DNA from: Erysipelotrichaceae bacterium MTC7
GTDB taxonomy: Bacteria; Bacillota_I; Bacilli_A; Erysipelotrichales; Erysipelotrichaceae
Reading direction: 5' to 3'
Assembly (NCBI GenBank): GCA_001695645.1
Contig: LVZN01000001.1
Location: forward strand, 240,001 to 272,000
DNA length: 32,000 nucleotides
Shown here: in pieces, positions 3,163 through 28,000 of the stretch
Numbering within the stretch: the first letter of the stretch is position 1
Layout: each line of letters begins with the position of its first letter
The notes under the pieces: model-generated
Databases searched by the model: none
Told to the model about the DNA's origin: nothing
What the model saw: only the letters and a program-made list of their open reading frames with translations
Position numbers and translations under genes: made by a program

Positions 3163-5433
3163 ATACTGTATCCATTGGTAAAGTCCATAGAGAATTCCAC
3201 TACCTACTGCTAAGCTCAGTGTCAAGATGATCATATCATGGTTGAATGGCGGCACTTTTAATAAACTATGGAATAAGAGAACTGCCACATAGAAACCGAT
3301 TGCCACAAACCAAAATAGAAATAAACGAAGTTTGTTGAACGGTAAACATGCCTTTAAGACCCCTAAAATACTGATTGCCCCAACTAACAGATACATAATT
3401 GCATTTGCTTGACTATCACTAAAGTGATACACATCTTTTACGCACATCACAATGACAATGTTAAGAATGATGAGAATCGCATTTGGCAATGCTTGCAGCA
3501 ATGAAGTACGCAAGTAGGTACCTGTAACTTGTTGATTGTTTTCTTCAAATGAGATAAAGAATGAAGGAAATCCTTCAATTGCTAAATCGATAAGTGTAAT
3601 TTGAATTGGGATAAACGGGAAAGGTACATTGAGTACAATACACACCAAACTCAAGAGTAAAGAATAGATGGTTTTGATAAAGAAGATACCCGATACTTTT
3701 GTCACGTTGTTGATGATTCTTCTACCTTCCGAAAGTACTTTCGTTAAGTTGGAAAAGTCATTATCCAACAAAACCAATTGACTGACTTGCTTAGCCGCTG
3801 CATTTCCATTTGCCATTGCGATGGAACAATTTGCTTCTTTTAATGCAAGAACATCATTCACCCCATCACCACTCATGGCAACAGTATGACCCATTTGTTG
3901 CAATTCATTAACCAGGCATTGTTTTTGCTCTGGTGAAACTCGACCAAACACTTTTTTTGTATGCGCAAGTTTGCGAACATCAGCTTCATTTTCCACTTGG
4001 CTTAAGTCCACATACGCTTCCCAACCTTCAAGTCCAGCGCGTCTTGCAACATTTGCAACCGTTAAGGGATGATCTCCACTAATAACTTTAACTTCAACAC
4101 CTTCACGTTTAAAGAAATCAAACGTTGCCTTGGCATTTTCACGAATTGGATCATCCAGACAAATCAGTCCAAGTGGTGTATCATCAAGCGATACCATAAG
4201 GACGCGATATCCTTCTTCTTGCGCTTGTTTAATTTCTACAGGAATGTCTTTTGGATCACACATTTTTTCAGGTGCTCCAACTTTCACAACCCCAAGATTT
4301 TTAAAATCAATACTTCCCCATTTTCTCTCACTCGAGAATGGGATTTTTTGTCCTGCTTCAAATTCACTTTCTTTTCTTTGAAAGAAATATTCATGCATCG
4401 CTTGAAACGTTGCATTGTTATCTTGGGTATTTTCAATGTAATTGGCCATGATGTTGTCCATGTTTTTTCCATGGAAACCCTCTGCTTTGACAACACGCAT
4501 ATTTCCTTCGGTAATCGTTCCGGTTTTATCCAAACATAACATGTCCACATGGGCAAAAATTTCCATACAATGCATATCTTGTACCAACACATTGCGTTTG
4601 CTTAAGTTGATAACACCCGTTGCACTCCCAATACCAATGAGTAACACCAACCCTTTTGGTAACATTCCTAATAGTGCAGCTGCACTTGCAACAATGGAAA
4701 TAAACATGGTATTTTCACGCACGACAAATGCTTGATAAAATAAAATCAATCCCAATGGAATAATGATAAAACTCGTAAATTTAGAAACCGTACGGATGGC
4801 TTGAATCAATTCCGAATGGTTCTTTTTGTATTCTTTTACTTCGCTTACAATTTTATTGGCAAAAGCATCATCACCAACGCGAATGACTTGTGCTTGAGCG
4901 CGACCACCAACAATAAAACTTCCAGAGAAGAGTTCATCTCCGATTTCTTTGACAATCGTGTCACTTTCTCCAGTTAATAGAGATTCGTTAACCTCTACAC
5001 TTTCATTTACGACAATTGCATCCGCAGGAATTTGATCCCCCATCTCTAAATAAAGGATGTCATCCATTACGATATCTTCAAGGTTCACTTTATCGATGTT
5101 TCCTTCACGTACAACACCTGCTTTATCTGCAGAAATAAGGGTTAACTTTTCCACTAGATTCTTTGCGTGAATTTCTTGATAAATTCCAATGACGATGTTC
5201 GTCAAAATAATGAGTAAATAAAACATGTTGGAAATTGCCCCAACACTCAACAAAGCAACTCCAATTGCAAAGTTTAGAAAGTTAAAAAGCGTACAAACAT
5301 TATCATAAACGATTTGTCCATTTGTTTTTGTTACTTTCTTTGGTGGGTTATTTGATAACCCTTTTTCTTTTCTCGTTGTTACTTCTTTATATGATAAACC
5401 TTGTTTAAAATTGATTTCTTTTTCTAGTTTCAT
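3145..5433 (-). CDS. cation-translocating P-type ATPase (HAD-IC superfamily), substrate unknown
   Basis: 762-aa ORF with the phosphorylation motif CLDKTGTITEG, the hinge motif SGDGVNDVLALKEA, the TGES actuator motif (LLTGESD) and multiple TM segments. The TM4 motif reads LPKGL rather than PEGL. Confidence 0.85.
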   Translation of the reverse strand: MKLEKEINFKQGLSYKEVTTRKEKGLSNNPPKKVTKTNGQIVYDNVCTLFNFLNFAIGVALLSVGAISNMFYLLIILTNIVIGIYQEIHAKNLVEKLTLISADKAGVVREGNIDKVNLEDIVMDDILYLEMGDQIPADAIVVNESVEVNESLLTGESDTIVKEIGDELFSGSFIVGGRAQAQVIRVGDDAFANKIVSEVKEYKKNHSELIQAIRTVSKFTSFIIIPLGLILFYQAFVVRENTMFISIVASAAALLGMLPKGLVLLIGIGSATGVINLSKRNVLVQDMHCMEIFAHVDMLCLDKTGTITEGNMRVVKAEGFHGKNMDNIMANYIENTQDNNATFQAMHEYFFQRKESEFEAGQKIPFSSERKWGSIDFKNLGVVKVGAPEKMCDPKDIPVEIKQAQEEGYRVLMVSLDDTPLGLICLDDPIRENAKATFDFFKREGVEVKVISGDHPLTVANVARRAGLEGWEAYVDLSQVENEADVRKLAHTKKVFGRVSPEQKQCLVNELQQMGHTVAMSGDGVNDVLALKEANCSIAMANGNAAAKQVSQLVLLDNDFSNLTKVLSEGRRIINNVTKVSGIFFIKTIYSLLLSLVCIVLNVPFPFIPIQITLIDLAIEGFPSFFISFEENNQQVTGTYLRTSLLQALPNAILIILNIVIVMCVKDVYHFSDSQANAIMYLLVGAISILGVLKACLPFNKLRLFLFWFVAIGFYVAVLLFHSLLKVPPFNHDMIILTLSLAVGSGILYGLYQWIQYKKNHD

Positions 5434-8640: not shown

Positions 8641-8970
8641 ATGCAAAATTTACGAGAGTGGAGCACATTACTTTTACGTAGTATGGTGATTGGTTTTATC
8701 ACCGGTGTTTGTTTATGCCTCTTTCGATTTACAAACAACGTTACCATACCGTCATTTCTAGTTTCATTTCTTGTTTTCTTGTGCCTATCCATATACTATG
8801 TAAAAAATACATATAAAAAGAAACTTATCATATTTTGGATTTCTTTATTTTACATGTGTATCTTTTTCATTGCCGCTGGTGGCATAATCTTGCAAGGTCT
8901 TGCCTTATGCTGCATGCTTACGATTCTCATACTCTATCACAGTCAAATCAAACCACTGTTCGTCCATTAA
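8641..8970 (+). CDS. small hypothetical membrane protein
   Basis: ATG at 8641 is preceded by AAGGGGA. The 109-aa product is very hydrophobic and I recognise no family. Confidence 0.4.
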   Translation: MQNLREWSTLLLRSMVIGFITGVCLCLFRFTNNVTIPSFLVSFLVFLCLSIYYVKNTYKKKLIIFWISLFYMCIFFIAAGGIILQGLALCCMLTILILYHSQIKPLFVH

Positions 8971-9000
8971 AAACACGTCCAACTACGGACGTGTTTTTTT
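8969..9000. terminator. bidirectional rho-independent terminator
   Basis: AAAAACACGTCC-aactac-GGACGTGTTTTTTT: an 8-bp perfect stem flanked by an A-run and a T-run, between convergent genes. Confidence 0.75.
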
Positions 9001-9800: not shown

Positions 9801-10721
9801 TTATTTACCTTCCTTCCCTGTTAATTTTTTGTATAGATTGACTTGTTTACGTTTTGTCATCATAACCGGTAATGCCAAAGATACTCCAACTAAGATTGCT
9901 GATAACAACTTAAGATCATCGGTTTGCATTCCCATTCGTAGTACGATCGCAATAATCACACGATATACAATTGATCCAACCACAATGGATGTTAAACGCA
10001 ATTTAAATCCACGTTTATTTCCAAATAGGACTTCTCCAATCACGATCGAAGCTAATCCAATTACAATGGCACCAACTCCCATTTTTACATCTGCATACCC
10101 TTGTGATTGCGTGACAAGTGCTCCAGAAAAAGCAACAAGTCCATTGGCAATCATAATCGCGATGATCTTTGTAGTTTTGGTATTCACACTCAACGCACTT
10201 GCCATGCGCTCATTATTTCCTGTTGCCCGAATGGCTGATCCAATTTCGGTTCCAAAAAACCAGTATAAAACGACAATCACTAAGATGACCACTAGTACGC
10301 CTACCACCAAGCTGGCTTGGGCAGCACTTAATCCAGTTAATTCACTAATACTTTTAAAGACCGTATCACTTTGCATTAACGGTAAGTTACTTCTACCCAT
10401 AATGCGTAAATTAATCGAATACAATCCAATTTGTGTAAGAATTCCAGCTAAAATTGCTGGTATCTCAAATTTGGTAATTAACAATCCGGTAATAAATCCA
10501 CAAATACAACCAGCAACCATCGCAAGCAACACTGCTAGTATTGGATTCATACCACCGACGATACAAACCGCACAAACAGCTCCACCTGTTGCAAACGATC
10601 CATCCACTGTCATATCTGCGATATCAAGAATACGGAACGTAATGTATACACCTAAGGCCATAATCCCCCAGATGATACCTTGTGCTACCGCTCCTTGCAA
10701 CGATAATAATAATCCCGTCAT
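9801..10721 (-). CDS. ABC transporter permease (COG4120-type)
   Basis: 306-aa polytopic membrane protein with RBS AGGAGA. It lies between the binding-protein gene and the ATPase gene. Confidence 0.85.
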   Translation of the reverse strand: MTGLLLSLQGAVAQGIIWGIMALGVYITFRILDIADMTVDGSFATGGAVCAVCIVGGMNPILAVLLAMVAGCICGFITGLLITKFEIPAILAGILTQIGLYSINLRIMGRSNLPLMQSDTVFKSISELTGLSAAQASLVVGVLVVILVIVVLYWFFGTEIGSAIRATGNNERMASALSVNTKTTKIIAIMIANGLVAFSGALVTQSQGYADVKMGVGAIVIGLASIVIGEVLFGNKRGFKLRLTSIVVGSIVYRVIIAIVLRMGMQTDDLKLLSAILVGVSLALPVMMTKRKQVNLYKKLTGKEGK

Positions 10722-10731
10722 AATCTTTCTC

Positions 10732-11709
10732 CTATTTCACTATTTTTGCGTTTTTTAATAATTCTTCTGGAATTGTAATTCCCAACTTTTTCGCTGTTGT
10801 TTCATTGAATCCCATTTCCAATTTGTCTTCTGCCGAGTATTCGATTGGCATATCTTTTGGCTCAGCTTCACCTCTTAAAATTTTTGCTGCTTGTTTACCT
10901 GCAAGGTAGCCAATGTCGTAGTAGTTAATTCCATATGTTGCAAGAGCCCCTTTTTCTACCATGGCAATTTCTCCTACCACTGTTGGCATGTTGTGTTCAT
11001 TGGTCACACTTACAACATTGGCAATACTTTCACTAACCATGTTGTCTGTTGGCACGTAAATTGCATCTATTTTACCGACTAAACTTTCTGCAACTTGTTG
11101 CACTTGGTTAGATTCCGAAACGGTTGCCGCTTCCACTTTCACCCCTTTTGCCTCCAATGCTTTTTTGGCAATTTCAAATTGAAGTTCACTATTACGTTCG
11201 GCATTTGTATACATAACTGCAACCGATTTTACTTCTGGTGCCAGTTTCAACAATAAATCAATTTGATCTGCAACTGGTGTTAAATCACTAACTCCGGTAA
11301 CATTTCCGCCAGGTTTTTTATTCGACTTTACTAGTTTTGAATCCTCTGGGTTGGTCACCGCCGAAATCACAATTGGTATTTCTGAAGTTTTTTGTGCTGC
11401 GGCAATCGCACTTGGTGTTGCAATCGCATAAATTAAATCATTTCCATCGTTTACTAATTTATCAGCAATGGTTTCTGCATTACTACCTTCTCCTTGTGCA
11501 TTTTGATCATCAAAGGTGATGTTTTTCCCCTCTTCAAATCCTTCATCTTTTAATGCTTCAAGAAATCCATCATGTGCAGCATCCAATGCTGGGTGTTGTG
11601 CATACTGAATAATCCCTACTTTTTTCATCCCCTCTGTATCATCATTACAAGCCACTAAGCCTACCATCATAAGTAAACTAATGCAAATCATCAATCCTTT
11701 TTTCATCAT
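10732..11709 (-). CDS. ABC transporter substrate-binding lipoprotein (COG2984 / ABC_sub_bind family), copy 2
   Basis: The lipobox is LVAC. The conserved core reads VGIIQYAQHPALD...IYAIATPSA...GGNVTGVSD. It is a paralogue of 12017..12997. Confidence 0.85.
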   Translation of the reverse strand: MMKKGLMICISLLMMVGLVACNDDTEGMKKVGIIQYAQHPALDAAHDGFLEALKDEGFEEGKNITFDDQNAQGEGSNAETIADKLVNDGNDLIYAIATPSAIAAAQKTSEIPIVISAVTNPEDSKLVKSNKKPGGNVTGVSDLTPVADQIDLLLKLAPEVKSVAVMYTNAERNSELQFEIAKKALEAKGVKVEAATVSESNQVQQVAESLVGKIDAIYVPTDNMVSESIANVVSVTNEHNMPTVVGEIAMVEKGALATYGINYYDIGYLAGKQAAKILRGEAEPKDMPIEYSAEDKLEMGFNETTAKKLGITIPEELLKNAKIVK

Positions 11710-11739: not shown

Positions 11740-11980
11740 AAAAAAACCGTCCCCAAATGAGGACGATTAGAAAACCGCGGTACCACCTCTGTTTTATACA
11801 AATGTATAACAACTCGAAACACGATAATGGGTGTTAACCAGAGGTAGCCTACTTATAAACCTTATATGTTCGGTACTCAACTCCGTGATGTATTCATTTA
11901 CCTTCTTATGTGCTATTTTCACCACCATAGCATCTCTTGTTTCCAAAGGATCATTACTTGTTCACTTCTTCGTCTATCTT
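11740..11980 (-). promoter_or_regulatory. T-box leader, specifier read as UAC (Tyr)
   Basis: All on the minus strand. Stem I has the AGTA S-turn, AGAGA bulge and distal loop GCTA-tggtggtgaaaa-TAGC. The specifier loop reads GAA-TAC-A-TCAC, with the codon at plus 11890..11892. The T-box core AGAGGTGGTACCGCGG is at 11775..11787. The terminator CGTCCTC-attt-GGGGACG plus T-run is at 11740..11765. Confidence 0.85.
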
Positions 11981-11986
11981 GATTCA

Positions 11987-12015
11987 ATTGTAGTTGACTC
12001 GATAAAGCTTGTCAA
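11987..12015 (-). promoter_or_regulatory. sigma-A promoter driving the Tyr T-box leader
   Basis: TTGACA (12015..12010), a 17-nt spacer and TACAAT (11992..11987). It starts 2 nt after the upstream binding-protein stop codon. Confidence 0.7.
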
Positions 12016-12016
12016 A

Positions 12017-12997
12017 TTAATCCAAGACCGTTGCATCTTTTAGTAATGCAGCAGGAACATCAATTTTTACTTTATCAGCAACTTTTTGGTTGATGACTAG
12101 TTCTAGATCATCACCTTTCAAGTATTCAATTGGCATATCAGCAGCAACTGCTTCACCACGTAAAATTTTTGCAGCTTGTTTTCCAGCAAGTTGACCAAGT
12201 TTGTAATAATCAATTGCATAAGATGCAAGACCACCACCTTCAGTCATTCCTTTTTCACCAACAATGCAAGGGATTCCTTTCTCGTTGGTTACTTGTGTTA
12301 CCGTTGCAATTCCTTCAGCAAGTAAGTTGTCAGTTGGAATGTAAACCGCATCGACTTGTCCGACTAAACTTTCCGCAACTTGTTGAATTTGACTAATATC
12401 AGAAACGGTTGTTTCTTGAAATGCAATTCCTTCTTTTTTAAGTGCTTCAGCTGCAATGTCTGCTTGAAACTTCGAATTGTCTTCAGAGTTTGTATACATG
12501 ATTGCTACTTTTTGCACATCTGGAAGCAATTGTTTGATTAATGAAATTTGTTCCGCAACTGGTGTTAAATCACTAACCCCTGTTACATTTCCACCTGGTT
12601 CTTTGTTGCTTTTTACAATACCAGCTGTTTCTGGATCAGTTACCGCATTCACAACAATTGGAATCTCAGATGTTTTTTGCGCAACCGCTTGTGCACTTGG
12701 TGTTGCAATCGCATAGATTAAATCCGGATTGTCGTTTACCAGTTTATCAGCAATGGTTTCATTCGTTGAACTATCGCTTTGTGCGTTGTTTCGATTGATT
12801 GTTAGGTTTTTGCCTTCTTCGAATCCTTCATCTTTTAATGCATCGATAAATCCTTCATACGTTTTATCCAACGCAGGGTGTTCTGCATATTGGATGATTC
12901 CAACCGTTGCATGTCCTTCTGCTTTTTCTTCTTCATTACATGCAGTAAGCGCAACACACATACAAAGCAGCAATGTTAATACACCAATTCTTTTCAT
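12017..12997 (-). CDS. ABC transporter substrate-binding lipoprotein (COG2984 / ABC_sub_bind family), copy 1
   Basis: Start at 12997 with RBS GGGGGAAG. The lipobox is LTAC. By eye it is about two-thirds identical to copy 2 (not computed). Confidence 0.85.
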   Translation of the reverse strand: MKRIGVLTLLLCMCVALTACNEEEKAEGHATVGIIQYAEHPALDKTYEGFIDALKDEGFEEGKNLTINRNNAQSDSSTNETIADKLVNDNPDLIYAIATPSAQAVAQKTSEIPIVVNAVTDPETAGIVKSNKEPGGNVTGVSDLTPVAEQISLIKQLLPDVQKVAIMYTNSEDNSKFQADIAAEALKKEGIAFQETTVSDISQIQQVAESLVGQVDAVYIPTDNLLAEGIATVTQVTNEKGIPCIVGEKGMTEGGGLASYAIDYYKLGQLAGKQAAKILRGEAVAADMPIEYLKGDDLELVINQKVADKVKIDVPAALLKDATVLD

Positions 12998-13026
12998 AAA
13001 ACACTTCCCCCTATGACTCAAAAAAC

Positions 13027-13249
13027 AAAAAAAGTCCTCAAATATGAGGACGATGATTCACCGCGTTACCACCTCGTTTGTCATCTTTTGATGACCACTT
13101 TGGTACACAAGATAATGGTTGTTAACCAGCTTGCCTTTTGTGACAAGCAACTCCATGATGAATTCAAAACTCTTCTTCGTGTTATTTGCACCAACCATAA
13201 CATCTCTAATTTCCAAAAAGTATCTACTACTTCACTTCTTTGTTTTATT
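13027..13249 (-). promoter_or_regulatory. T-box leader, specifier read as UUC (Phe)
   Basis: All on the minus strand. It has GTGA-agt-AGTA, AGAGA and the distal loop GTTAT-ggttggtgcaa-ATAAC. The specifier loop reads GAA-TTC-A-TCA, with the codon at plus 13160..13162. The T-box core GAGGTGGTAACGCGG is at 13061..13073. The terminator GTCCTCA-tatt-TGAGGAC plus T7 is at 13027..13051. Confidence 0.85.
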
Positions 13250-13255
13250 ATATTC

Positions 13256-13284
13256 ATTTTACCGACAATGTAAAAGTATGTCAA
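13256..13284 (-). promoter_or_regulatory. sigma-A promoter driving the Phe T-box leader
   Basis: TTGACA (13284..13279), a 17-nt spacer and TAAAAT (13261..13256). Confidence 0.7.
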
Positions 13285-14425: not shown

Positions 14426-14501
14426 TGGCGCCTGAAACAGGACTTGAACCTGTGACCGTTCGGTTAACAGCCGAGTGCTCTACCAACTGAGCTATTCAGG
14501 C
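14426..14501 (-). tRNA. tRNA-Asn (anticodon GTT), CCA encoded
   Basis: Hand-folded cloverleaf. The acceptor stem is GCCTGAA/TTCAGGC, the anticodon loop is CT-GTT-AA, the T-loop is GGTTCAAGTCC and the 3' end is GCCA. Length is 76 nt. Confidence 0.9.
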
Positions 14502-15523: not shown

Positions 15524-15606
15524 GCGCGTGTGGCGAAATTGGCAGACGCACCAGACTTAGGATCTGGCGGGCAACCGTGGGGGTTCGAGTCCCTTCACGC
15601 GCACCA
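15524..15606 (+). tRNA. tRNA-Leu (anticodon TAG), CCA encoded
   Basis: The acceptor stem is GCGCGTG/CACGCGC, the anticodon stem-loop is CCAGA-CTTAGGA-TCTGG, and it has a long variable arm and the T-loop TTCGAGT. Length is 83 nt. Confidence 0.9.
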
Positions 15607-15617
15607 TTTGTATTTGG

Positions 15618-15691
15618 GGTTCCTTAGCCAAGTGGTAAGGCAATAGACTGCAACTCTGTGATCACCAGTTCAAATCTGGTAGGAACCTCCA
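15618..15691 (+). tRNA. tRNA-Cys (anticodon GCA), CCA encoded
   Basis: The acceptor stem is GGTTCCT/AGGAACC, the anticodon stem-loop is ATAGA-CTGCAAC-TCTGT and the T-arm is ACCAG-TTCAAAT-CTGGT. Length is 74 nt. Confidence 0.9.
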
Positions 15692-15726
15692 TTTTTGAAA
15701 TTGTGATAAAGTGTGCAATAAAATAT

Positions 15727-15813
15727 CGGGCCGTGGCGGAATAGGCAGACGCAACGGACTTAAAATCCGTTGAGGGCAACCTCGTGGGGGTTCAAGTCCC
15801 CCCGGCCCGACCA
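15727..15813 (+). tRNA. tRNA-Leu (anticodon TAA), CCA encoded
   Basis: The acceptor stem is CGGGCCG/CGGCCCG, the anticodon stem-loop is ACGGA-CTTAAAA-TCCGT, the long variable arm is GAGG-gcaa-CCTC and the T-arm is GGGGG-TTCAAGT-CCCCC. Length is 87 nt. Confidence 0.9.
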
Positions 15814-16998: not shown

Positions 16999-19900
16999 CT
17001 ACTTGTTTAATTTTCTTTTTTTCTTAGAGACTCCGAATCCAATTCCTACTGTAGACAATAGTAGCATCATCAAGAATACGCTTGTATTTGTAGTGTCTGA
17101 AGTATTTGTCCCAGTTGATGGTTTATTATTATCTCCCGGTGCAATACTAGGTGCCTCTACATTAGGTTTTTCACTAACTTTACTTAACTTACTAATTGCA
17201 TCAACCAATTTAGTTTTTGCAACATCCACTTCTTCTTGTGTTGCTTCCTCATTTGCCATAACAGCCTTTGCGTTTGCTAATGCTTCTACTACACCTTTCC
17301 ATGTTTCTGGTGTATAGTCAACTTCTTTTAAAGCTTCTGCATTTGTTATTGAAGTTTGCAATTCAGTTTTATCAACTGAAACTACAGCCCCTTTTAAATT
17401 TGCAACAGCTGTTTCTAAAGCTGCTTTTGCGGCATTAACTTCATCTTGTGTTGCATCCGCATTAGCAAGAACTGATTTTGCTGATGTTAATGCATCTGAA
17501 ACTGCTTTCCATGTTTCTGCTGTGTAGTCAGCTGCTTTTAAAGTTTCTGCACTAGCAACTGTAGCCGTTAATGCATCTTTGTTTACATTACTTTCTTCAA
17601 CCTCTACTAGATTATCAATTGCTGTTTGAAGTGCTGTATTAGCTGCATCAACCTCTTCTTGTGTTGCATCTGCATTAGCAAGAACTGCTTTTGCTGATGT
17701 TAATGCATCTGAAACTGCTTTCCACGTTTCTGTCGTGTAGTTAGCTTCTTTTAAAGCTTCTGCACTAGCAATTGTTGCCGTTAATGTATCTTTGTTTACA
17801 TTACTTTCTTCAACCTCTACTAGGTTATCAACTGCTGTTTGAAGCGCAGTTGTTGCATCATCTACTTCTTTTTGTGTAGCGTCTACGTTGCTAGTAACTT
17901 CTTTAGCTTCATTCAATGCTGTTTCAAAATTTCCAAATGATTCTTCTGTGTATTTCGAACCATCGTAGTCCTTAACCTCTTCAATTAAATCGTTTAGGGA
18001 TGTTTTATCCCCTTTTGCTTGCATAATGGTAATTCCTTTGATGTTACTAACATGACTACTACCTTCTTTCGCCTTGAAAGTGATAAACAATCTGTGGTAA
18101 CCTTCAATTTTCACATCATCAATATCTACTTCCTTGTTAACAAAGTTACCCCAGCTACCTGTACCTTCTACTGTGAATTCCGCGAATGGTTCAGCTGTTT
18201 TACTGTCAATGCGGAACGATACCGTTCCTCCTGAGTCGTTTTGAACAGAGTGATTAAACATAATTTTGTCAATTGTTCCATGGAAAGCCAAGTCATACGC
18301 AACATATGTTCCATTTTTCACACCACCGACAACACCATCTGGATCATTGGCAACACCGCCATCTGCAACATAAGACTGTGGAGCAATAGGCTCATACACA
18401 TCTTTTGATGTATTAATCTTGTTCAATAAATCAATTAAATTTAAGTATTGCGCACTGATTTCCTCCCCAGTCGCATTTTCATTATCCAATACTGTCTTTG
18501 CGTTACCTAACGCTTCATTAATGATATTCACAAATACCTTGTTCATATCTGTTTGATCAATCTTAGCAACTTCATTGTACACTGCTTGTAACATTGCTTT
18601 TGACACATCACCATCTAAACGTTCACCAATAAGTTCAACTTCCGCTAACTCACTTCCGCCCGTCAACTCTAACTTATAGTGTACATATGTACCTGTATCA
18701 CTTACTTTAAATGGTCTTGTATACTTCTTCCACTCAAAGGTTAAATCTTTACGTGACTCTAGTTTAGTCCAATTTTCACCGTCGTTTGATCCACTTAATA
18801 CAAAACCTGTAGGAGCTTTATCAGCAGCTCCGCTTGTCAATGTAATCATATTCACTAATGATCGTTGTGCACCACTATAGTAAAGCGTCGTTTTATCTTC
18901 AAGTGGTACTACTGTCTTTGAAGTATTATCAAATAAGTTTTTCACATCGCTCTTACTGTAAATTGTATCAGCAACTACGAATTCTCCTTTTGGAGCATCT
19001 TTTGCAACAGCTACATTTGCTTGTGTTACATCTTGGTCAGGCGTTGCAACTTCATCACCTTTTGTAATTGAAGTTGGAAGATCTTCTTCTTTACTTCCAA
19101 ATTCTTTATTAGGTTCACTGCCCATTGTAAATTCTAGCGTTCCACCATTTTGAACTTCTGATGTTTTAATGTAACTTCTTGTTGAGTTTTCTCCATTGAC
19201 CTTCAATGATTGAACATATACATTTTCATCGCTATTGTTATTCGCAATAATAGTTAAATCTTTTCCATTTTCCAAATGAACTGTCATTTTGTCAAATAAT
19301 GGTGAACCGATGGCAAATTCATCATTCCCCATAGATACAGGGTAAAGTCCCATTGCTGAGAAAATATACCAACCAGACATTTCTCCGTTATCTTCATCTC
19401 CAATATAACCTTGTCCAAAGCTACTTCCACGATAGATTCTTTCCATAATGTCTCTAGTGTAGTACTGCGTTTTGTATGCTTCACCAGCATAGTTATACAT
19501 ATATGGAATGTGGTGACTTGGTTGGTTAGAGTGTCCATATTGACCTAGTTTAATTTCACGCGCTTCTTTTTGTTCGTGAATTCCACCTACAGATTCAACA
19601 GCACCATAACCATAATAATTACCTGTATCTGTAAATGTTTCATCTAATTTTTTACCAAGTTCTTCTCTACCACCATATAAATTTGCTAAACCTTGTCCAT
19701 CTTGCATTACATGTGCCGACATGTTGAAAGCATTAGTCTCCGTATAGTCTCCACCATACCAATGAGGATTGAAGTTTTCATTTGACCAATCTCCACTTGT
19801 CGTTCTACCTTTAAAGAACTTATTTGCAATATTTCCATCTGCATTATCGTACAATAACGTATAGTTTTGCGCACGGTTTAAGTAATACTGTGCTTCATCT

Positions 19901-22539
19901 ACATAACCAAGTTTTTTAGCCATTTGATAGATTCCATAATCATTAATGTAACCTTCCATTGACCAAGAGAATCCCTCACCAACATTATTTGCTGTGTATC
20001 CTCTAAAAATTGATTCTTCAAGTCCAGCACGACCACCATTAACCAAGTTGTCTGAAACTGTAGCTGCATTACGAATTGCTGATTTATACGCATTTTCATG
20101 GTCAAATTCATATCCTTTGTTCATCGCATCACCAAATACTACATCTGAACTCGTACCAACCATACTATTTGTTCCACCTGGTGCTATCCAACGAGGAACC
20201 CATCCTTGGTCATTGTAGTGTGCCACTAAACCATTTAACATCTCCGTATTCATTGACGGTGTCAACAATCCATATGCTGCCCATGTATTTTTATAAGTAT
20301 CCCAGAATCCGTTGTTAATATACATCTTTCCTTCTTTAATAATTGGATTTTGCACAGTTCCACCATAAGGACTTGCATATTTCCAAACTGGATCATCATT
20401 TGTTCCTGTATTTTCCGAAAGATTATTTGGATACATGAATAAACGATATAAGTTTGAGTAAAGTGTGACTTTTTCATCTTCACTTGCACCTTCAACTTCG
20501 ACAATTCCAATTTTCTCATCCCAAACTTTTTGAGCTTTACTGAATACATCATTAAACGTATCTGAAGATTCTACTTCATTACTTAGATTTCTTTTCGCTT
20601 GTTCATAACTAATGTATGAAGTAGCAACTTTCATTTCGACAGTTCCTTTACCCTCACCAAATGTTGCGATTGCTGCTCCAGAGCCATCAAAGTTTTTAAC
20701 TGCTGTTGGTGTTTTGTTAAACTCTCCATATACATACATGCGTTTTGAACCATTACTTGCATGATCCGAATACGTTTGAAATGCAGAGTTCCCATTGATA
20801 AATTCAAACTGACTCGCCCCACGAATGCAATCAAGAATCACACTTTGGTTCTTTGCATCATTATCAAATGTATATCGAACAACTGCTGCATGTTCTGTCG
20901 GTGTTGTTTCAACTTTAGAGTTAGCCGCAGGTGTTTTGTCATCAAATTTTACACTATAATAATGTGCATGCCCAATTTCATTGTCATGTGAGAATGCAGA
21001 GCGACGTGCATCCACATTAATTTGGTTTTTGCTTGTTACATCCGCTGCGTTAATACTTGTATTTGACATGTATTGCCATGTACCACGATCACTTGTCCAA
21101 ATTGATGGTTCGTGGCTTACAGTCATATGATTCAACTCTCTTGTTTGATATTCATAAATCGTGTCACCTGTTGTTGTCGCAGGAGCCCAAAAGTTTGCCC
21201 CATGTGGCATTGTTACAGCCGGAACTGTTAGACCTCTTGAAAAGTTTCCATTTCCGTTTGTACCACGAAGAATATTCACATAATCAGACACATTTGCATA
21301 ATCAGTCTCAGATTTTGTGTATACCTCAATATCATCAAAATATGTTAAGAATTCAGCTAAATCTTCTTCTTTCAGATTATCTTTTTTATCATATCCAATT
21401 AATATTTCACTAATAGTTTTGCCGTTTGCAACTTTACCAAGTTTTGTTGTTACTTGATTCCATTGGTGCATTGTCAAAATTCTAGAATCACCTTGTGCTT
21501 GAGGTGTCATTGCGACATCGTTTTGGTCCAATGCACCTAAATCACTCAAATATGATCCATCACTGAATTTAAGGTCTATCATCATATGCATATCTGTAAA
21601 TTCATAATCGTAATTAGAGTCATCTAATAAATACGGAAACATTGTATAACTTAAATAAGTATTTTCATCAACCGCAATATTTACATCTTTATACAGTGTA
21701 TTATAAGCATGTGCTCCATCATGCCCCCTATGAGCACCAGAAACCTCTAACGCTTTAGCTCCTGTCCATCCAGCTCCAGCTTTTTGGTTCCAAGTACTAA
21801 TTGGACCATTACTTCGACGTGTCACCATCCCATCAGGACTCACATCAAGATCATTTGTGAAAAATGTTAAATTCGAGAATTGTGTCATTCCGTCATTTCC
21901 ATGATTCGCTGTAATATCGAATTTATAATAACCGTATGCTTCAGTTAAATTTAATTCGAATGATTTGGTTTGTTTACGTTCGGTAAATCTTTGATTTTCA
22001 CGTTTATCTAAACTTACCCACGTTTTCCCATCCGTACTTCCAAACAACTCCCAGTTTTTTGGGTCACGCCCATCAGAATCATTGGCTGAAGCAACGTTGT
22101 ATGTCGAGATCGGCTTCACCTTTTCTGTTTGAAATTCCACAGTAACCGGTTGTGATTCACTAGGTTTGTGTTCATTTGTCAAGAACTTTGTATTTGTATC
22201 TTGATCAAACAAACGTACTTTTGTCTCATTTGAGTTAAAGTCGGCACTCCCCTTTATGGAATCCCCAATCACCGTGCTTGTGATTACCCCTTTATCAGGC
22301 GCATTAACAACATTTGATACCCCTTTTGTTGGATCAACTTCATTTGTTAATAGTCCATCCTTCTCATCTTCGAATGACTGAAGTAAGAGTGTTTTTTTAT
22401 CGTTTTTATAATCTGGACTAGATTTAAAAACATTGTCATCTTTCGCTAAAGTCTTTAGACTGTCAGTTCCAAAGAATGAAGCAAAAGATGCAAACATCAT
22501 ACATAAAATTAATAAAATTTTACCAGCTTTTGTTTTCAT
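16999..22539 (-). CDS. secreted, C-terminally anchored multidomain GH92-like alpha-mannosidase homologue (1846 aa) with F5/8-type-C (CBM32-like), CBM6-like and FIVAR modules
   Basis: RBS AAGGAG lies 5 nt before the ATG, followed by a signal peptide. Discoidin-like segments are RLFDQDTNTKF...NWELFGSTDGKTW and SGSNDGENWTKL. GH92-like motifs are WDTYKNTWAAYGLLTP, YGHSNQPSHHIPYMYNYAG, GDEDNGEMSGWYIFSAMGLYPV and IGSPLFDK. There are four C-terminal FIVAR-like repeats, then a hydrophobic stretch and KKKRKLNK. Confidence 0.7.
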   Translation of the reverse strand: MKTKAGKILLILCMMFASFASFFGTDSLKTLAKDDNVFKSSPDYKNDKKTLLLQSFEDEKDGLLTNEVDPTKGVSNVVNAPDKGVITSTVIGDSIKGSADFNSNETKVRLFDQDTNTKFLTNEHKPSESQPVTVEFQTEKVKPISTYNVASANDSDGRDPKNWELFGSTDGKTWVSLDKRENQRFTERKQTKSFELNLTEAYGYYKFDITANHGNDGMTQFSNLTFFTNDLDVSPDGMVTRRSNGPISTWNQKAGAGWTGAKALEVSGAHRGHDGAHAYNTLYKDVNIAVDENTYLSYTMFPYLLDDSNYDYEFTDMHMMIDLKFSDGSYLSDLGALDQNDVAMTPQAQGDSRILTMHQWNQVTTKLGKVANGKTISEILIGYDKKDNLKEEDLAEFLTYFDDIEVYTKSETDYANVSDYVNILRGTNGNGNFSRGLTVPAVTMPHGANFWAPATTTGDTIYEYQTRELNHMTVSHEPSIWTSDRGTWQYMSNTSINAADVTSKNQINVDARRSAFSHDNEIGHAHYYSVKFDDKTPAANSKVETTPTEHAAVVRYTFDNDAKNQSVILDCIRGASQFEFINGNSAFQTYSDHASNGSKRMYVYGEFNKTPTAVKNFDGSGAAIATFGEGKGTVEMKVATSYISYEQAKRNLSNEVESSDTFNDVFSKAQKVWDEKIGIVEVEGASEDEKVTLYSNLYRLFMYPNNLSENTGTNDDPVWKYASPYGGTVQNPIIKEGKMYINNGFWDTYKNTWAAYGLLTPSMNTEMLNGLVAHYNDQGWVPRWIAPGGTNSMVGTSSDVVFGDAMNKGYEFDHENAYKSAIRNAATVSDNLVNGGRAGLEESIFRGYTANNVGEGFSWSMEGYINDYGIYQMAKKLGYVDEAQYYLNRAQNYTLLYDNADGNIANKFFKGRTTSGDWSNENFNPHWYGGDYTETNAFNMSAHVMQDGQGLANLYGGREELGKKLDETFTDTGNYYGYGAVESVGGIHEQKEAREIKLGQYGHSNQPSHHIPYMYNYAGEAYKTQYYTRDIMERIYRGSSFGQGYIGDEDNGEMSGWYIFSAMGLYPVSMGNDEFAIGSPLFDKMTVHLENGKDLTIIANNNSDENVYVQSLKVNGENSTRSYIKTSEVQNGGTLEFTMGSEPNKEFGSKEEDLPTSITKGDEVATPDQDVTQANVAVAKDAPKGEFVVADTIYSKSDVKNLFDNTSKTVVPLEDKTTLYYSGAQRSLVNMITLTSGAADKAPTGFVLSGSNDGENWTKLESRKDLTFEWKKYTRPFKVSDTGTYVHYKLELTGGSELAEVELIGERLDGDVSKAMLQAVYNEVAKIDQTDMNKVFVNIINEALGNAKTVLDNENATGEEISAQYLNLIDLLNKINTSKDVYEPIAPQSYVADGGVANDPDGVVGGVKNGTYVAYDLAFHGTIDKIMFNHSVQNDSGGTVSFRIDSKTAEPFAEFTVEGTGSWGNFVNKEVDIDDVKIEGYHRLFITFKAKEGSSHVSNIKGITIMQAKGDKTSLNDLIEEVKDYDGSKYTEESFGNFETALNEAKEVTSNVDATQKEVDDATTALQTAVDNLVEVEESNVNKDTLTATIASAEALKEANYTTETWKAVSDALTSAKAVLANADATQEEVDAANTALQTAIDNLVEVEESNVNKDALTATVASAETLKAADYTAETWKAVSDALTSAKSVLANADATQDEVNAAKAALETAVANLKGAVVSVDKTELQTSITNAEALKEVDYTPETWKGVVEALANAKAVMANEEATQEEVDVAKTKLVDAISKLSKVSEKPNVEAPSIAPGDNNKPSTGTNTSDTTNTSVFLMMLLLSTVGIGFGVSKKKRKLNK
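17158..18009 (-). repeat. four tandem 210-216 bp coding repeats (70-72 aa FIVAR-like three-helix modules)
   Basis: The anchor string TCTTGTGTTGCATC recurs at 17234, 17444 and 17657 with a period of 210-213 bp. The two central copies are near-identical at the DNA level. The protein repeats read NKDxLTATxASAExLKxxxYTxETWKAVSDALTSAKxVLANADATQxEV. Confidence 0.85.
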
Positions 22540-23032: not shown

Positions 23033-24103
23033 TTACAAACTTGTAAACTCGATATCTAACTCTTCTTGTTCTGACTCTTTGTCGTAGTCAGTAACATCCG
23101 TATTTTCTTTCTTCAATAAGTTTACCATAACTGCTGTTACTACTGCACCCGCAGCGATTCCTAAGATGTATCCTAATCTACCTTCGACAACTGGTAGTAC
23201 AATCAGTCCACCCCAAGGTGCATGGTTCAATACACCCATCATGAACGGAATAATATTTCCTACAACTGCTCCTACCATAATTGATGGAATAACTCGAACA
23301 GGGTCATTTGCTGCAAATGGAATTGCACCTTCGGTAATTCCTACACACCCCATAAGAATAGCGGCTTTTCCAGCTTCTCTTTCTTCAGTGTTGTATTTCT
23401 TTGGTGATAGTAATGTTGCTAACCCCATTCCAATTGGAGGTGTACAGATAGCAACACCAACTCCTCCCATTAAATAAGGCAATACATCAACTTGTGTTTG
23501 TGCGAATAAAGTAGCAACTTTGTTAATTGGACCACCCATGTCAAATGCAGTCATTGCACCAAGAATTGCTGCCAATGGAATTTTTCCAATTCCTTGGAGT
23601 CCATTTAACCAGTTTGTTAAACCTTCCATCAAACCTGCGATCGGTGTTCCAATTATCCATACGATAATACCACCAGTAATTAATGTTCCAAACAATGGGT
23701 ATAAGAAAATTGAACCAAGTGATTTTAATGCGATTGGTAGTTTTATACGTTTTAATTGTTTAACTACAAAACCTGCGATAAATCCTGCCGCAATTCCTCC
23801 AAGGAATCCAGCTCCAACTTGACTTGCTAAGTATGCCCCCATCATCCCTGGTGCTAAACCAGGCTTATCTGCGATTGAATAGGCAATGTATCCCCCTAAT
23901 ACTGGAACGAATAGTGATAACCCTGCTAACCCAATGTCAGATAGTCCTTTTAACCAACCCGTTTCCGGCGTTGCGGCACCTTCTGGGTTTAACATAACTG
24001 CTAGTGAGAATAAAATCCCCCCGGCAACGATAAACGGAATCATGTGTGATGTTCCGGTTAATAAATGTCTTTTTGCTGTAGATATAGCTTTCTTGAAATC
24101 CAT
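23033..24103 (-). CDS. PTS fructose/mannose-family EIIC component
   Basis: 356-aa polytopic membrane protein with the Fru-family motif FDMGGPINKVA. An RBS lies within the end of the IIA gene. Confidence 0.85.
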   Translation of the reverse strand: MDFKKAISTAKRHLLTGTSHMIPFIVAGGILFSLAVMLNPEGAATPETGWLKGLSDIGLAGLSLFVPVLGGYIAYSIADKPGLAPGMMGAYLASQVGAGFLGGIAAGFIAGFVVKQLKRIKLPIALKSLGSIFLYPLFGTLITGGIIVWIIGTPIAGLMEGLTNWLNGLQGIGKIPLAAILGAMTAFDMGGPINKVATLFAQTQVDVLPYLMGGVGVAICTPPIGMGLATLLSPKKYNTEEREAGKAAILMGCVGITEGAIPFAANDPVRVIPSIMVGAVVGNIIPFMMGVLNHAPWGGLIVLPVVEGRLGYILGIAAGAVVTAVMVNLLKKENTDVTDYDKESEQEELDIEFTSL

Positions 24104-25061: not shown

Positions 25062-28000
25062 TTATCTTATTTTCTTTGATTTCTTTCTTCTAAGCATTAA
25101 AATACTTGAACCAGATAGACCTAGTAAACATAGAATAAATTCTGTACCCATTACTGAAGTACCCGTATTTATCGATCCGTCATCTCCATTTGCATCGATT
25201 GATGGTAGTTCTTCATTCGGATCAACTTCTGTCCCTGGTTTATCTTCAATTAATACTAACTGCCCCATGGCTTGTTGCAATTGCGCAATTGCTTCTTCAA
25301 TATCTTTTGATGAAGTCGGATTTTCAAGTAATACCTTTGCATTTTCTAAAGCTTCTTTAAACGCTTCTTGTCCTTCTTCTTTATATTGACTTAAGTCAAT
25401 TTTTTCCGCCTCTTTAACAAGTTCTGCTAAGTTCGTAACATCTGGTATTAATTCCAGATTATCAAAAGCTTCTTGTAAGTTACTAACTGCTTCATCAACT
25501 TCAGTTTGTGTAAGCGATACGCTTGCTTGTACTTTTCTTGCAGCATCTAGACATGATAAGAATCTTTCCCGACCTTCTTCAAAATATAAATCGAGATTTA
25601 CTTCACTCATTTCATTGATAATTTGGTCGAGTTCGGATTTATCTAGGACTGTCAACTTAGCATTTGCATCAAGAAGTTTATCATAAGCCTCTTTATATTG
25701 TGCATATGGACTACCTTCTGGTATTGCTTTTGCTACAGATAATGCTTCCTGTAAAACCTTATAGCTATCACTTGTGTATCCATCCTCTTTTATTGCTGAA
25801 AGCTCATCAACTAAGTCACTTAATTCACCAACTATCTTTAATTCCAGAGTTTCTATAGTCTTTTCTAATGCCTTTTGACTATAGCGAACATCACTTTGTA
25901 ATGCATCATCACTATTTAATACATCAAGTGCATCTTTCATAGCTGTAACAAATGGCTTTACGCTTATCTCAGTATACAATTCTTTATTTTCAAGAATACT
26001 TAAACTATCATCATACAATTTTTGTAGTTCAGTTTTATTTAACTCCTCATAAAACTCGAAGTAATCAAGATTCGCAACGTAAGGATTGTTTGAGTCAGCT
26101 CTCATCGTGAAGAAGATTGTATGATCTCCTTTTATTTTCTCAGTAAGTTTTACTGAAGCAACTTCATAACTATTCCAATTGGTTCCAGTAGCAGGAAGTT
26201 GAATTACATCGATTGGTTCATTGTCAAGCGAGTCTAAACGCACTTCAAGTCTAGCATTTTCACCACAACGATTTGAGTTATTCACATATCTTACTCTAAT
26301 TTCATGTAAACCATCATGTGTAAATGCTAGATTTTCAAAAGCTAACCATGCTCCATCGTATGATCCTCCAACATTTACTAAAGAGTTATTATTCGTATCC
26401 GTACTGTTTTCAATTTTTAAATTTCCAGCACTCCAATTAGAATATTTTTCTGCTTCGAAGCGTTCGTATGACTGTGATTCCTTAAATTGCATGTAGTCGA
26501 TATTGGCAATATATGGCTTGTCTACACTAGTTGTTCCATGCATGACAAAATAAATATCATATACGCCATCTAGTTTCACGTCGTCATTAATTTTTTCTTT
26601 AGCAATTGTATAGTTACCCCAACCACTATCATTGGGTTTTAGTTCTACAGTTGCTAAAAGTTCTCCATCGACCGCGTCTTTTCTTACTTCAACGCGACTA
26701 TCTGGTGCGCATCTTCCAGAGTTATTTACATATCGGATATCTATCGTATCAATCAATTGCTGTTCGAAATCCAAAGATTCAAATTTTATCCACGCTCCAT
26801 CATATGTTCCTCCGATGTTCATAGATTCATTTTTCAATCCATTTGCAGACCAGTCATCACTTTTTTCTGCTTCAATACGAACCAAAGCATTTGTACTTCC
26901 TTTCAATTTATCCATTGCATTTGTGATACTTAAATATGCATCTTGAATCTCTTTTTCAGAAGCATTTTCATCACCCAAAACTTGCTTACCATTTTCTATT
27001 GTATCTAGTAATTTATTGTATGTCGAAGTTGTGTAAACCCCTTCCTTTATACTTTCAGCTGTTTTTATCGCATTTTCAAGTTTCGCTTTGTAATTGTTGT
27101 AGAAATCAATGACTAAAGAACTCATTCCTGTTCTAAAACTATTTTGAATAGAGCTTGCTTTACCATTCGTAAATGCTTGATCTTTGAACTCAATAGAAAT
27201 ATCTCTGTCAATATTATGTTCTTTTGCATTTCCATTAAAACTTAATACTACAGTCTTTTCGGATGTCTTTTTTAATAAAGGTGTCAAACCTTCCGGAACA
27301 TTATTAATTTTCACCTTCTCAGTTGCAATAAAGTCTTCACCAATTTCTCCGGTAAATTCTGTTGTTCCTTTTATCGTGATAGTTGTTGTATCCAAAATCG
27401 AACCATTATCCTTGTTGCTTTCGGTTAAGAAATCACTGCTGTAATTTAAAGCATCATCCTGAAACATTACTTTAATATTGTCACGTTTTTTGTAGACACT
27501 TAAAAGTGGTGAATTTACTGCACTATCTTTTATCTCTATGGTTAAATTTCCAATACTATCATTTAGTCCATGTTTCTTTGCCTGACCATGTAAGGAAATT
27601 TCTACTTTCTGAGGAGTAGTTATAATTGCTTTTGCACTCAATCCTTCTGGTAAGTTAGTAATTGCAATTTTCCCTTGTGCATATAAATCTTCACCTATAT
27701 TACCTTCATAATTGAGGCTAGTTAATTCAACTTCTATTTTATCTTCAAAAGTTCCTTTATTTAAATCTGATTCCTCAAACATACTTTTCGAATAAATAAC
27801 CTCATCATCTCTAAGTTGACTCGTACTAACATTATCGCTGCTTGATTTTGCTGGTATTCCGTCTTCAGCCCAAGTTGAAGGACTGTCACCCATTTCAAAC
27901 TTTAATACTCCACCCCTTGTGATTTCTGCATAATCTATCCATGAACGATCTAAGGAATCGCCATTTAATGTTGCAGATTGAATGTAGAAGTTATCCTCTG

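Follow-up and report, generated by a model that had tools for sequence, protein, structure and literature searches.

Among the systems described so far, the closest to the locus considered here is the tryptophan (Trp) importer TrpXYZ of streptococci (Streptococcus suis SSU1307 operon; Dresen et al. 2022, PMC9382623), in which a substrate-binding protein (SBP) of the PF04392 family, a PF02653 permease and an ATP-binding cassette (ABC) ATPase are encoded behind a transcriptional T-box leader validated by reporter mutagenesis. The stretch of DNA analysed in the present work, hereafter the window, comprises 32,000 nucleotides of Erysipelotrichaceae bacterium MTC7 (contig LVZN01000001.1, positions 240,001 to 272,000) and contains a cluster with the same three components, likewise with a transcriptional T-box leader ahead of the binding-protein gene. 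However, TrpXYZ has one leader, with the specifier UGG, and one binding protein, whereas the window has two leaders, with the specifiers UUC and UAC, and two binding proteins (SBP1 and SBP2), and its first unit consists of a binding protein only. The Trp T-box of streptococcal TrpXYZ is said to have been predicted earlier, by Panina et al. in 2003. By its gene content and family matches, the cluster of the window is an aromatic amino acid ABC importer of the TrpXYZ/CD0873 family from Breznakia, an insect-gut Firmicute, arranged as two transcription units in series. In our opinion, with a probability of about 0.6, a phenylalanine (Phe) T-box/SBP1 unit is followed in it by a tyrosine (Tyr) T-box unit encoding SBP2 and the translocator, SBP1 most likely serving Phe and SBP2 Tyr.

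The closest solved relatives of the binding proteins are CD0873 of Clostridioides difficile (6HNI/J/K; Bradshaw et al. 2019, PMC6816091), VC_1101 of Vibrio cholerae and SP1069 of Streptococcus pneumoniae, with E values of 6e-68 to 6.5e-70. Their structures hold Tyr (CD0873, 6HNI), Phe (VC_1101, 3LKV) and Trp (SP1069, 3LFT), and of 20 amino acids examined by differential scanning fluorimetry, Tyr alone stabilised CD0873 (PMC6816091). In this Tyr-binder E263 hydrogen-bonds the Tyr hydroxyl and Y279 excludes Trp; the Phe-binder has Ala at the position of Glu263, and Gln284 of SP1069 leaves space for the indole and forms a bond with it (PMC6816091). In TrpX of S. suis the amino and carboxyl groups of the ligand are held by the backbone-binding residues T108, A127, T129, D152 and N233 (PMC9382623). 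A preliminary description of this DNA had called the protein family, COG2984, uncharacterised, which cannot be upheld in view of the crystal structures 6HNI, 3LKV and 3LFT and of the study of S. suis TrpXYZ by genetics and T-box reporters (PMC9382623). The CD0873-type locus of one C. difficile strain differs from the window, since it has no T-box and the order permease-ATPase-SBP, whereas the window has T-boxes and the order SBP-permease-ATPase.

Leaders with more than one T-box are known in thrZ and trpE (Wels et al. 2008, PMC2494555), where, as in the window, a transcript from the first promoter passes more than one T-box. These tandem T-boxes stand two or three to a leader, have one specificity and are separated by no gene or promoter (cited in PMC2494555). 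In contrast, the specifiers in the window differ, the 326-codon SBP1 gene and a second promoter intervene, and the controlled genes are different. For this reason the label "tandem T-box", a term for repeats of the same specificity within one leader, was not retained from the preliminary description, and the arrangement is treated as two transcription units in series. Saad et al. in 2013 reportedly found a two-codon "NT-box" in Clostridium acetobutylicum that binds two tRNAs by overlapping codons in one specifier loop. Like the window, it places one gene set under the control of two tRNA identities, but the window has two complete leaders. Two paralogous binding proteins of different measured ligand preference sharing one translocator are known from argT-hisJQMP of Salmonella and livJ/livKHMGF of Escherichia coli, in which one binding-protein gene forms a separately regulated unit beside or apart from the operon of the other binding protein and the translocator. 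Regulation there depends on protein factors (nitrogen control, Lrp) instead of tRNA-sensing riboswitches.

In Table 1 of Wels et al. 2008, transporters with Phe or Tyr T-boxes belong only to the NSS and NhaC families (PMC2494555). Neither a T-box on COG2984 nor a Phe/Tyr tandem T-box ABC transporter was found in the literature searched, which excludes Vitreschak et al. 2008, and no description of a series arrangement with two specificities and a first unit of a binding protein only was found there either. The parts of the locus are ordinary and well known, and their arrangement in series with two specificities appears to be new as far as this literature goes.

All coordinates are given in the numbering of the window, and the cluster is transcribed from the minus strand. 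The first unit runs from promoter P1 through T-box leader 1 (Phe) to SBP1; the second runs from promoter P2 through T-box leader 2 (Tyr) to SBP2, the permease, the ATPase and a terminator. P1 occupies 13284..13256, with the -35 box TTGACA at 13284..13279, a 17-nt spacer and the -10 box TAAAAT at 13261..13256. P2 occupies 12015..11987, with TTGACA at 12015..12010, a spacer of the same 17 nt and TACAAT at 11992..11987. Either promoter has 11/12 consensus matches and ends 7-8 nt ahead of a T-box start (P1 ends 7 nt before 13249), in agreement with the consensus promoter proposed earlier for each leader. Promoter-like sites are not enriched in the region as a class (15 found, 18.5 expected), and therefore the argument for P1 and P2 rests on position and conservation. 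Both hexamers of P1 are identical in Breznakia blatticola, and TTGAC and TACAAT of P2 are kept in B. blatticola and in the metagenome-assembled genome (MAG) Breznakia VLC_068 (locus L002). The L002 cluster has a single binding-protein gene and no other gene of the family before its leader, so that P2, being kept there, looks ancestral and like a real promoter.

Leader 1 with the specifier UUC lies at 13027..13249 and leader 2 with the specifier UAC at 11740..11979. The span of 11740-13284 indicated earlier indeed contains both leaders and extends, on the minus strand, from the P1 -35 box to the last U of the leader 2 terminator. The SBP1 gene (12017..12997) encodes a 326-aa ABC substrate-binding lipoprotein of PF04392 with the lipobox LTAC and Cys20. 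Its stop codon is at 12019..12017, and P2 begins 2 nt beyond it. The scan for hairpin terminators found none between this stop codon and P2; therefore, transcripts that get past the Phe switch would continue into the Tyr switch. The SBP2 gene (10732..11709) encodes a 325-aa PF04392 lipoprotein with the lipobox LVAC and is followed by the genes of the TrpY-type membrane component, a permease of PF02653 (BPD_transp_2; 9801..10721), and of the TrpZ-type ABC ATPase of PF00005 (8999..9799). The operon ends with a hairpin terminator at 8969..8998, listed without a strand, which has a 12-bp stem flanked by an A-run and a T-run. The earlier statement that each leader gates one binding protein has to be corrected, since leader 2 gates the permease and ATPase as well as SBP2.

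The Rfam scan of the whole window, with a gathering score of 93 bits for RF00230, revealed both leaders and no other T-box-type match. Leader 1 was matched over 13249..13043 with 123.2 bits (E 3.9e-27) and leader 2 over 11979..11756 with 108.6 bits (E 2.3e-23), in both cases across model positions 1-219 of 219. These alignments show two canonical T-boxes of the transcriptional type; the S-turn, the AGAGA bulge and the distal loop of Stem I, noticed previously, are all aligned to the model. In leader 1, Stem I covers 13249..13149 and has the S-turn AGUA, the AGAGA bulge at about 13207, the distal loop at 13196..13184 and the specifier loop GAA-UUC-A at 13165..13159 (codon 13162..13160). Stem II is at 13148..13129, the Stem IIA/B pseudoknot with the F-box at 13129..13111, Stem III at 13096..13080, the T-box sequence at 13079..13061 with the bulge UGGUAAC at 13071..13065, and the terminator with its U-run at 13051..13027. 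The corresponding parts of leader 2 are Stem I (11979..11879), the specifier loop GAA-UAC-A (11895..11889; codon 11892..11890), Stem II with an S-turn (11878..11841), Stem IIA/B and the F-box (11841..11823), Stem III (11810..11794), the T-box sequence (11794..11775) with the bulge UGGUACC (11785..11779) and the terminator with its U-run (11768..11740). The platform for the tRNA elbow, AGAGA with the distal loop GGUUGGUGCAAAU or GGUGGUGAAAAU, is present in both leaders as aligned to RF00230, and the distal helix of Stem I shows compensatory changes in the alignment of homologous leaders. Both leaders also have the GA/K-turn at the base of Stem I, and AGUA of the S-turn lies opposite GAA of the specifier loop. 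The segment CTGGTTAACA-CCATTATC, pointed out earlier as common to both leaders, corresponds to the Stem IIA/B pseudoknot with the F-box.

Each terminator is a G+C-rich hairpin. That of leader 1 is GUCCUCA-UAUU-UGAGGAC with U7, and the 3' domain of this leader gave a folding z of -4.97; that of leader 2 is AAUCGUCCUC-AUUU-GGGGACGGUU with U7 and has a 10-bp stem. The antiterminator consists of GAGG, UGGUAAC or UGGUACC, GCGGU ... AUCGU and CCUC. As read from the aligned sequence, its helix A2 (GCGGU with AUCGU) closes on a G-U pair in both leaders. In each leader the antiterminator uses as its 3' strand what forms the 5' strand of the terminator, and therefore the two folds are mutually exclusive, as the preliminary description had expected of terminator/antiterminator alternatives. 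In general, the discriminator base of tRNA-Phe and tRNA-Tyr is A73, and UGGU would fit a discriminator A.

The RF00230 model, for which both leaders exceed the gathering score, places GAA-UUC-A and GAA-UAC-A at the positions of the specifier loop with high posterior probability. With a separate Stem I model, an alignment was also made of 15 homologous matches located in the window and in nine related loci and representing 14 distinct sequences. The 4-bp helix closing the specifier loop, directly 3' of the codon and purine, is 100% paired in the 14 distinct sequences, with two of its four pairs changing on both sides. For Stem I overall, 89.6% of cells are paired and 15 of the 18 pairs show a compensatory change; this pairing was reached by none of 500 shuffles and approached by no slid register. 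Minimum free energy folding of Stem I alone was no better than that of shuffles (z ~0.2), which is to be expected because this domain is rich in motifs and loops, and covariation is the relevant test. Across the 15 matches the codon column contains UUC or UAC only. The model alignment and the covarying closing helix thus agree with the earlier call of Phe UUC and Tyr UAC.

One might suppose that the specifier has been mis-assigned, for example that AUG (Met) should be read in the overlapping aAUGAa, or that leader 1 is a decaying copy. AUG does sit just 5' of GAA in leader 2. Such an explanation seems to us extremely improbable, since UUC and UAC hold the canonical position in the covariance model, compensatory changes accompany the full pairing of the closing helix, and no triplet other than these two occurs in the codon column. 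Moreover, AUG is not conserved: the leader of the Breznakia MAG (L002) has GUGAAUAC at this place, that is GUG, and UAC is unchanged, which speaks against the AUG reading that the preliminary description had itself considered. Decay of leader 1 is hardly compatible with an identity of 91-92% between species whose synonymous sites are near-saturated.

The same layout of two leaders with the same specifiers was found in B. blatticola DSM 28867 (L001) and in a metagenome contig (L128), whose SBP1 is 99% identical to that of the window. The leaders of the window and B. blatticola are 91-92% identical, leader 2 having 92% identity with B. blatticola and 82% with the MAG leader. The ratios of nonsynonymous to synonymous substitution rates (dN/dS) between the window and B. 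blatticola are 0.075 for SBP1, 0.043 for SBP2, 0.029 for the permease and 0.020 for the ATPase, at a synonymous divergence (dS) of about 1 or more; with their B. blatticola orthologues, SBP1 and the permease share 89% and 96% identity, respectively. Homology between these two genomes does not extend into the flank upstream of P1. Low dN/dS and leaders so similar at a dS of about 1, next to a non-homologous P1 flank, indicate that both leaders and both binding proteins are under purifying selection.

SBP1 and SBP2, described earlier as paralogues, are indeed 60% identical to each other, and both are PF04392 lipoproteins (E 2.7e-81 and 8.9e-81). They match the solved relatives 6HNI, 3LFT and 3LKV at E 1e-55 to 6.5e-70, the value for SBP1 and 6HNI being 6e-68. 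The backbone-binding residues of TrpX correspond to T99, A118, T120, D143 and N224 of SBP1 and are invariant in a 10-protein alignment including SBP1 and SBP2. With the NCBIfam TrpX equivalog model NF041285, SBP1 and SBP2 scored 330.8 and 328 bits, below the cut-off of 390, and the position of SP1069 Gln284 is occupied by Tyr in SBP1, SBP2, CD0873 and VC_1101. On these scores and residues, SBP1 and SBP2 are relatives of TrpX and not TrpX itself, and their family membership shows the transporter to belong to the aromatic amino acid importers. The T-boxes found on relatives have Phe, Tyr or Trp specifiers only, which supports this assignment. The aromatic amino acid importer proposed earlier is therefore well in line both with the solved relatives, which hold Tyr, Phe and Trp, and with the T-boxes of the relatives.

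The mode of action would follow the standard T-box mechanism. Stem I would dock the tRNA through the anticodon and the elbow, the specifier UUC of leader 1 pairing with the GAA anticodon of tRNA-Phe and UAC of leader 2 with the GUA anticodon of tRNA-Tyr. The 3' ACCA of an uncharged tRNA would then pair with UGGU in the 7-nt bulge, so that the antiterminator is favoured over the terminator that overlaps it and RNA polymerase can continue. SBP1 would be made when tRNA-Phe is uncharged and would depend on the Phe signal only, and SBP2, the permease and the ATPase would be made when tRNA-Tyr is uncharged, whichever promoter starts the transcript. Transcripts from P1 that have passed the Phe checkpoint would also have to clear the Tyr checkpoint in order to add the translocator. 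If Phe alone ran short, SBP1 would have to rely on transcripts from P1 and P2 reading through leader 2 at a basal or boosted level. There would be no sense in a Phe T-box unless SBP1 took part in Phe import, and the same is true of a Tyr T-box and SBP2; the shared translocator is most likely supplied with Phe by SBP1 and with Tyr by SBP2.

Several observations weigh against this reading. The translocator genes are located only behind the Tyr switch, and a response to Phe only would need basal read-through. Leader 1 departs from the T-box consensus in two places: its Stem II is a plain 7-bp hairpin without the S-turn that Stem II of leader 2 has, and its bulge UGGUAAC differs once, in the ACC triplet, from the consensus UGGN-ACC of the bulge between helices A1 and A2, with which the UGGUACC of leader 2 agrees. 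No gene of tRNA-Phe or tRNA-Tyr was found in the window or in 22 related loci. Equivalents of Glu263 and Tyr279 of the Tyr-binder CD0873 are present in both SBP1 and SBP2, and no alignment column at a known pocket position splits Phe-linked from Tyr-linked proteins among 12. Both departures of leader 1 occur in B. blatticola too, and Stem II is optional among T-boxes (PMC7583486). A full Stem II is kept in other Phe leaders, for example in L127, so its reduction is not a Phe-specific trait.

Attempts to find residues that would discriminate between the two ligands gave no rule. The published pair Glu263/Tyr279 does not separate SBP1 from SBP2. Glu at the position of E263 occurs also in all homologues linked to a Phe T-box, so that either the Glu263/Ala rule is not of general validity or Tyr is accepted by these proteins. 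Among nine T-box-linked proteins, V235 and a VEKGAL loop were found only in the SBP2 clade and CD0873, and all Phe-linked proteins had I235 and GGL, but as a rule for Tyr this combination failed when L124, L126 and L127 were added, because two Tyr-linked proteins have I235 and GGL. These residues thus lend no support to the earlier proposal that the choice of binding protein switches the substrate range, a point which the sequence by itself does not decide.

With the same switches, SBP1 and SBP2 might overlap in binding Phe and Tyr, so that starvation for either amino acid raises uptake (an OR-type input) with no switching of substrate. The presence of Glu263 and Tyr279 equivalents in both proteins and the lack of a residue pattern that tracks the specifier are in favour of such an overlap, together with the small distance between the close homologues L126 (Tyr) and L127 (Phe), whose binding proteins are 74% and leaders 82% identical, and with the occurrence of a single binding protein behind two Stem I domains, UUC and UAC, in L005. 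We consider this a serious alternative, although a less likely one than the reading above, since two paralogues as different as these are both kept under strong purifying selection, suggesting different jobs, the related CD0873 responds to Tyr alone, and Phe starvation would raise SBP1 only, not the translocator.

It may also be asked whether SBP1 serves another role, as an adhesin or as a partner of a transporter or sensor elsewhere, the Phe T-box merely timing its expression. After all, CD0873 also acts as an adhesin (PMC6816091), the unit of SBP1 is devoid of translocator genes, the evolution of SBP1 is faster than that of SBP2 (dN/dS 0.075 against 0.043), and binding proteins gated by a T-box and lacking their own translocator exist also at L039 and L041. 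This role is very improbable in our opinion, because genes with a T-box normally have to do with the supply of the cognate amino acid, the residues binding the amino acid backbone are intact, and the SBP1 gene is placed directly upstream of the matching translocator in all three assemblies. An importer with a Phe unit followed by a Tyr unit, SBP1 most likely serving Phe and SBP2 Tyr, remains the reading that we prefer.

The relatives allow some suggestions on the origin of the locus. Phe (UUC) T-boxes were found in L004, L121 (Pseudoclostridium thermosuccinogenes), L122 (Defluviitaleaceae) and L127, Tyr (UAC) T-boxes in L002, L124 (Breznakia sp. PF5-3) and L126, and Trp (UGG) T-boxes in L035 (Streptococcus) and L041; the listed relatives with Phe or Tyr T-boxes are single operons. 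Erysipelotrichaceae-type leaders are all homologous, with identities of 66-82%. The Phe leader of the window shares an identity of 0.69-0.75 with the Tyr leaders of Breznakia and of 0.56-0.60 with clostridial Phe leaders, and the leader of L127 (Phe) is nearest to that of L126 (Tyr). The Phe leader is thus probably paralogous to the Tyr leader of its own lineage, with one A-to-U change at specifier position 2, and by parsimony the single-base switch between UAC and UUC appears to have happened at least twice. A specifier switch of this kind was proposed for a Bacillus cereus transporter (Wels et al., PMC2494555). The permease and ATPase of the window group with those of the Tyr-T-box operon of L002 (83-85% identity; permease 83%), and SBP2 is 75% identical to the single binding protein of that operon. 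SBP1 is about equidistant from all relatives (60-64% identity). Taken together with the grouping of the permease and ATPase with L002, this suggests that SBP1 and its leader are an added unit of a binding protein only.

A wider generalisation can be put forward only tentatively: one translocator whose substrate is programmed by riboswitches, its paralogous binding proteins being licensed by uncharged tRNA-Phe or tRNA-Tyr and the series layout integrating both signals, within a leader lineage in which a change of one nucleotide turns Tyr sensing into Phe sensing or the reverse, as seems to have happened two or more times among the relatives. In one relative, L005, two Stem I domains on one discriminator would form an OR gate for two tRNAs.

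L005 belongs to a MAG of an uncultured member of Eubacteriaceae (CALGIV010000043.1) and has a single SBP-permease-ATPase operon with two consecutive Stem I domains in its leader (4388-4790). The first Stem I (4388-4487) carries GAA-UUC-G (Phe) and the second (4505-4608) AAA-UAC-A (Tyr); only one Stem II, discriminator and terminator follow both. The two copies have identical ends, and their upper stems differ with pairing kept, so that they do not look like an assembly artefact. This leader may be a two-tRNA input on one switch. Unlike the NT-box, it has two Stem I domains with one discriminator. A double Stem I leader with two specificities was not found described in the literature searched, and no homologue closer than 60% was found for the L005 binding protein.

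T-box control is distributed sporadically in the family. The Stem I covariance model R1, applied to the window, 19 genome loci and 80 metagenome loci, gave no new T-boxes among the metagenome loci, and a regular expression for the T-box core likewise showed a T-box near the gene in few of them; these two results are the reason for calling such control sporadic. T-boxes are absent from most homologous operons, including the C. difficile locus (L117, 5261-8023) with a relative 95% identical to CD0873, where no T-box was found at E up to 0.01 and no other Rfam element upstream. The gene order there, permease-ATPase-SBP, is the reverse of that in the window. As there is no T-box at this locus, it was rejected as a calibration of specifier against ligand.

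A number of related loci deserve mention. In a human-gut contig (L041, 4034-4268 and 4389-5353), a T-box-free transporter is followed by a T-box with the specifier loop AAA-UGG-A (Trp) and a distant SBP paralogue (31% identical) without a translocator, a second instance in which the gene behind a T-box is that of a binding protein alone. Sub-threshold T-box matches occur at the same position in the human-gut contigs L039 and L042; L039 has the same paralogue, and L042 ends before any such gene. L125 (3800-4000) encodes a binding protein that shares 77% identity with the one of L124, a locus with a Tyr T-box. The promoter of L125 is homologous, but an unrelated leader of ~190 nt with a terminator-like hairpin at its end stands in place of the T-box, without a convincing Rfam match (only E 0.55, upstream). 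The homologous operons of L119, L120 and L123 have no room for a T-box. They are preceded by dtd (D-aminoacyl-tRNA deacylase, Pfam Tyr_Deacylase) and a gene of the metallo-beta-lactamase fold and followed by a shikimate kinase gene, a further link to aromatic amino acids. Many of the streptococcal loci (L007-L033, Streptococcus spp.) have two tandem SBP paralogues (three in L007) before one permease and ATPase, with gaps too short for a T-box. One translocator shared by several binding proteins thus seems to be common in the family. The two-SBP locus of S. suis, L011, was considered as the trpX locus and rejected, because it has no T-box.

If the regulatory logic suggested here is true, the locus is a compact natural case of one importer retuned by two tRNA-sensing RNAs. 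Near-isogenic Phe and Tyr leaders from one genome (~73% identical) could reveal in what way class I (Phe) and class II (Tyr) tRNAs are distinguished by Stem I, Stem II and the discriminator, and the pair of SBP1 and SBP2 provides material for searching for determinants of Phe or Tyr binding in the CD0873/TrpX family, which is relevant to p-cresol production by C. difficile and to streptococcal virulence. In Erysipelotrichaceae and Clostridia, annotation of substrates by T-boxes in this family would come to include Phe and Tyr besides Trp. Since B. blatticola DSM 28867 is a culture-collection strain, these predictions should be testable.

As for the rest of the window, it contains genes of tRNA-Asn(GUU) at 14426-14501 on the minus strand and of tRNA-Leu(UAG), tRNA-Cys(GCA) and tRNA-Leu(UAA) at 15524-15813 on the plus strand, none cognate to either T-box. 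Farther on, two very large proteins of 1846 and 1718 aa with GH92 alpha-mannosidase catalytic domains, CBM6 modules and FIVAR repeats are encoded at 16999-22539 and 25062-30218 on the minus strand, and close to their genes are those of a phosphotransferase system (PTS) EIIC component (23033-24103) and of a PRD/EIIA regulator (30534-31976).

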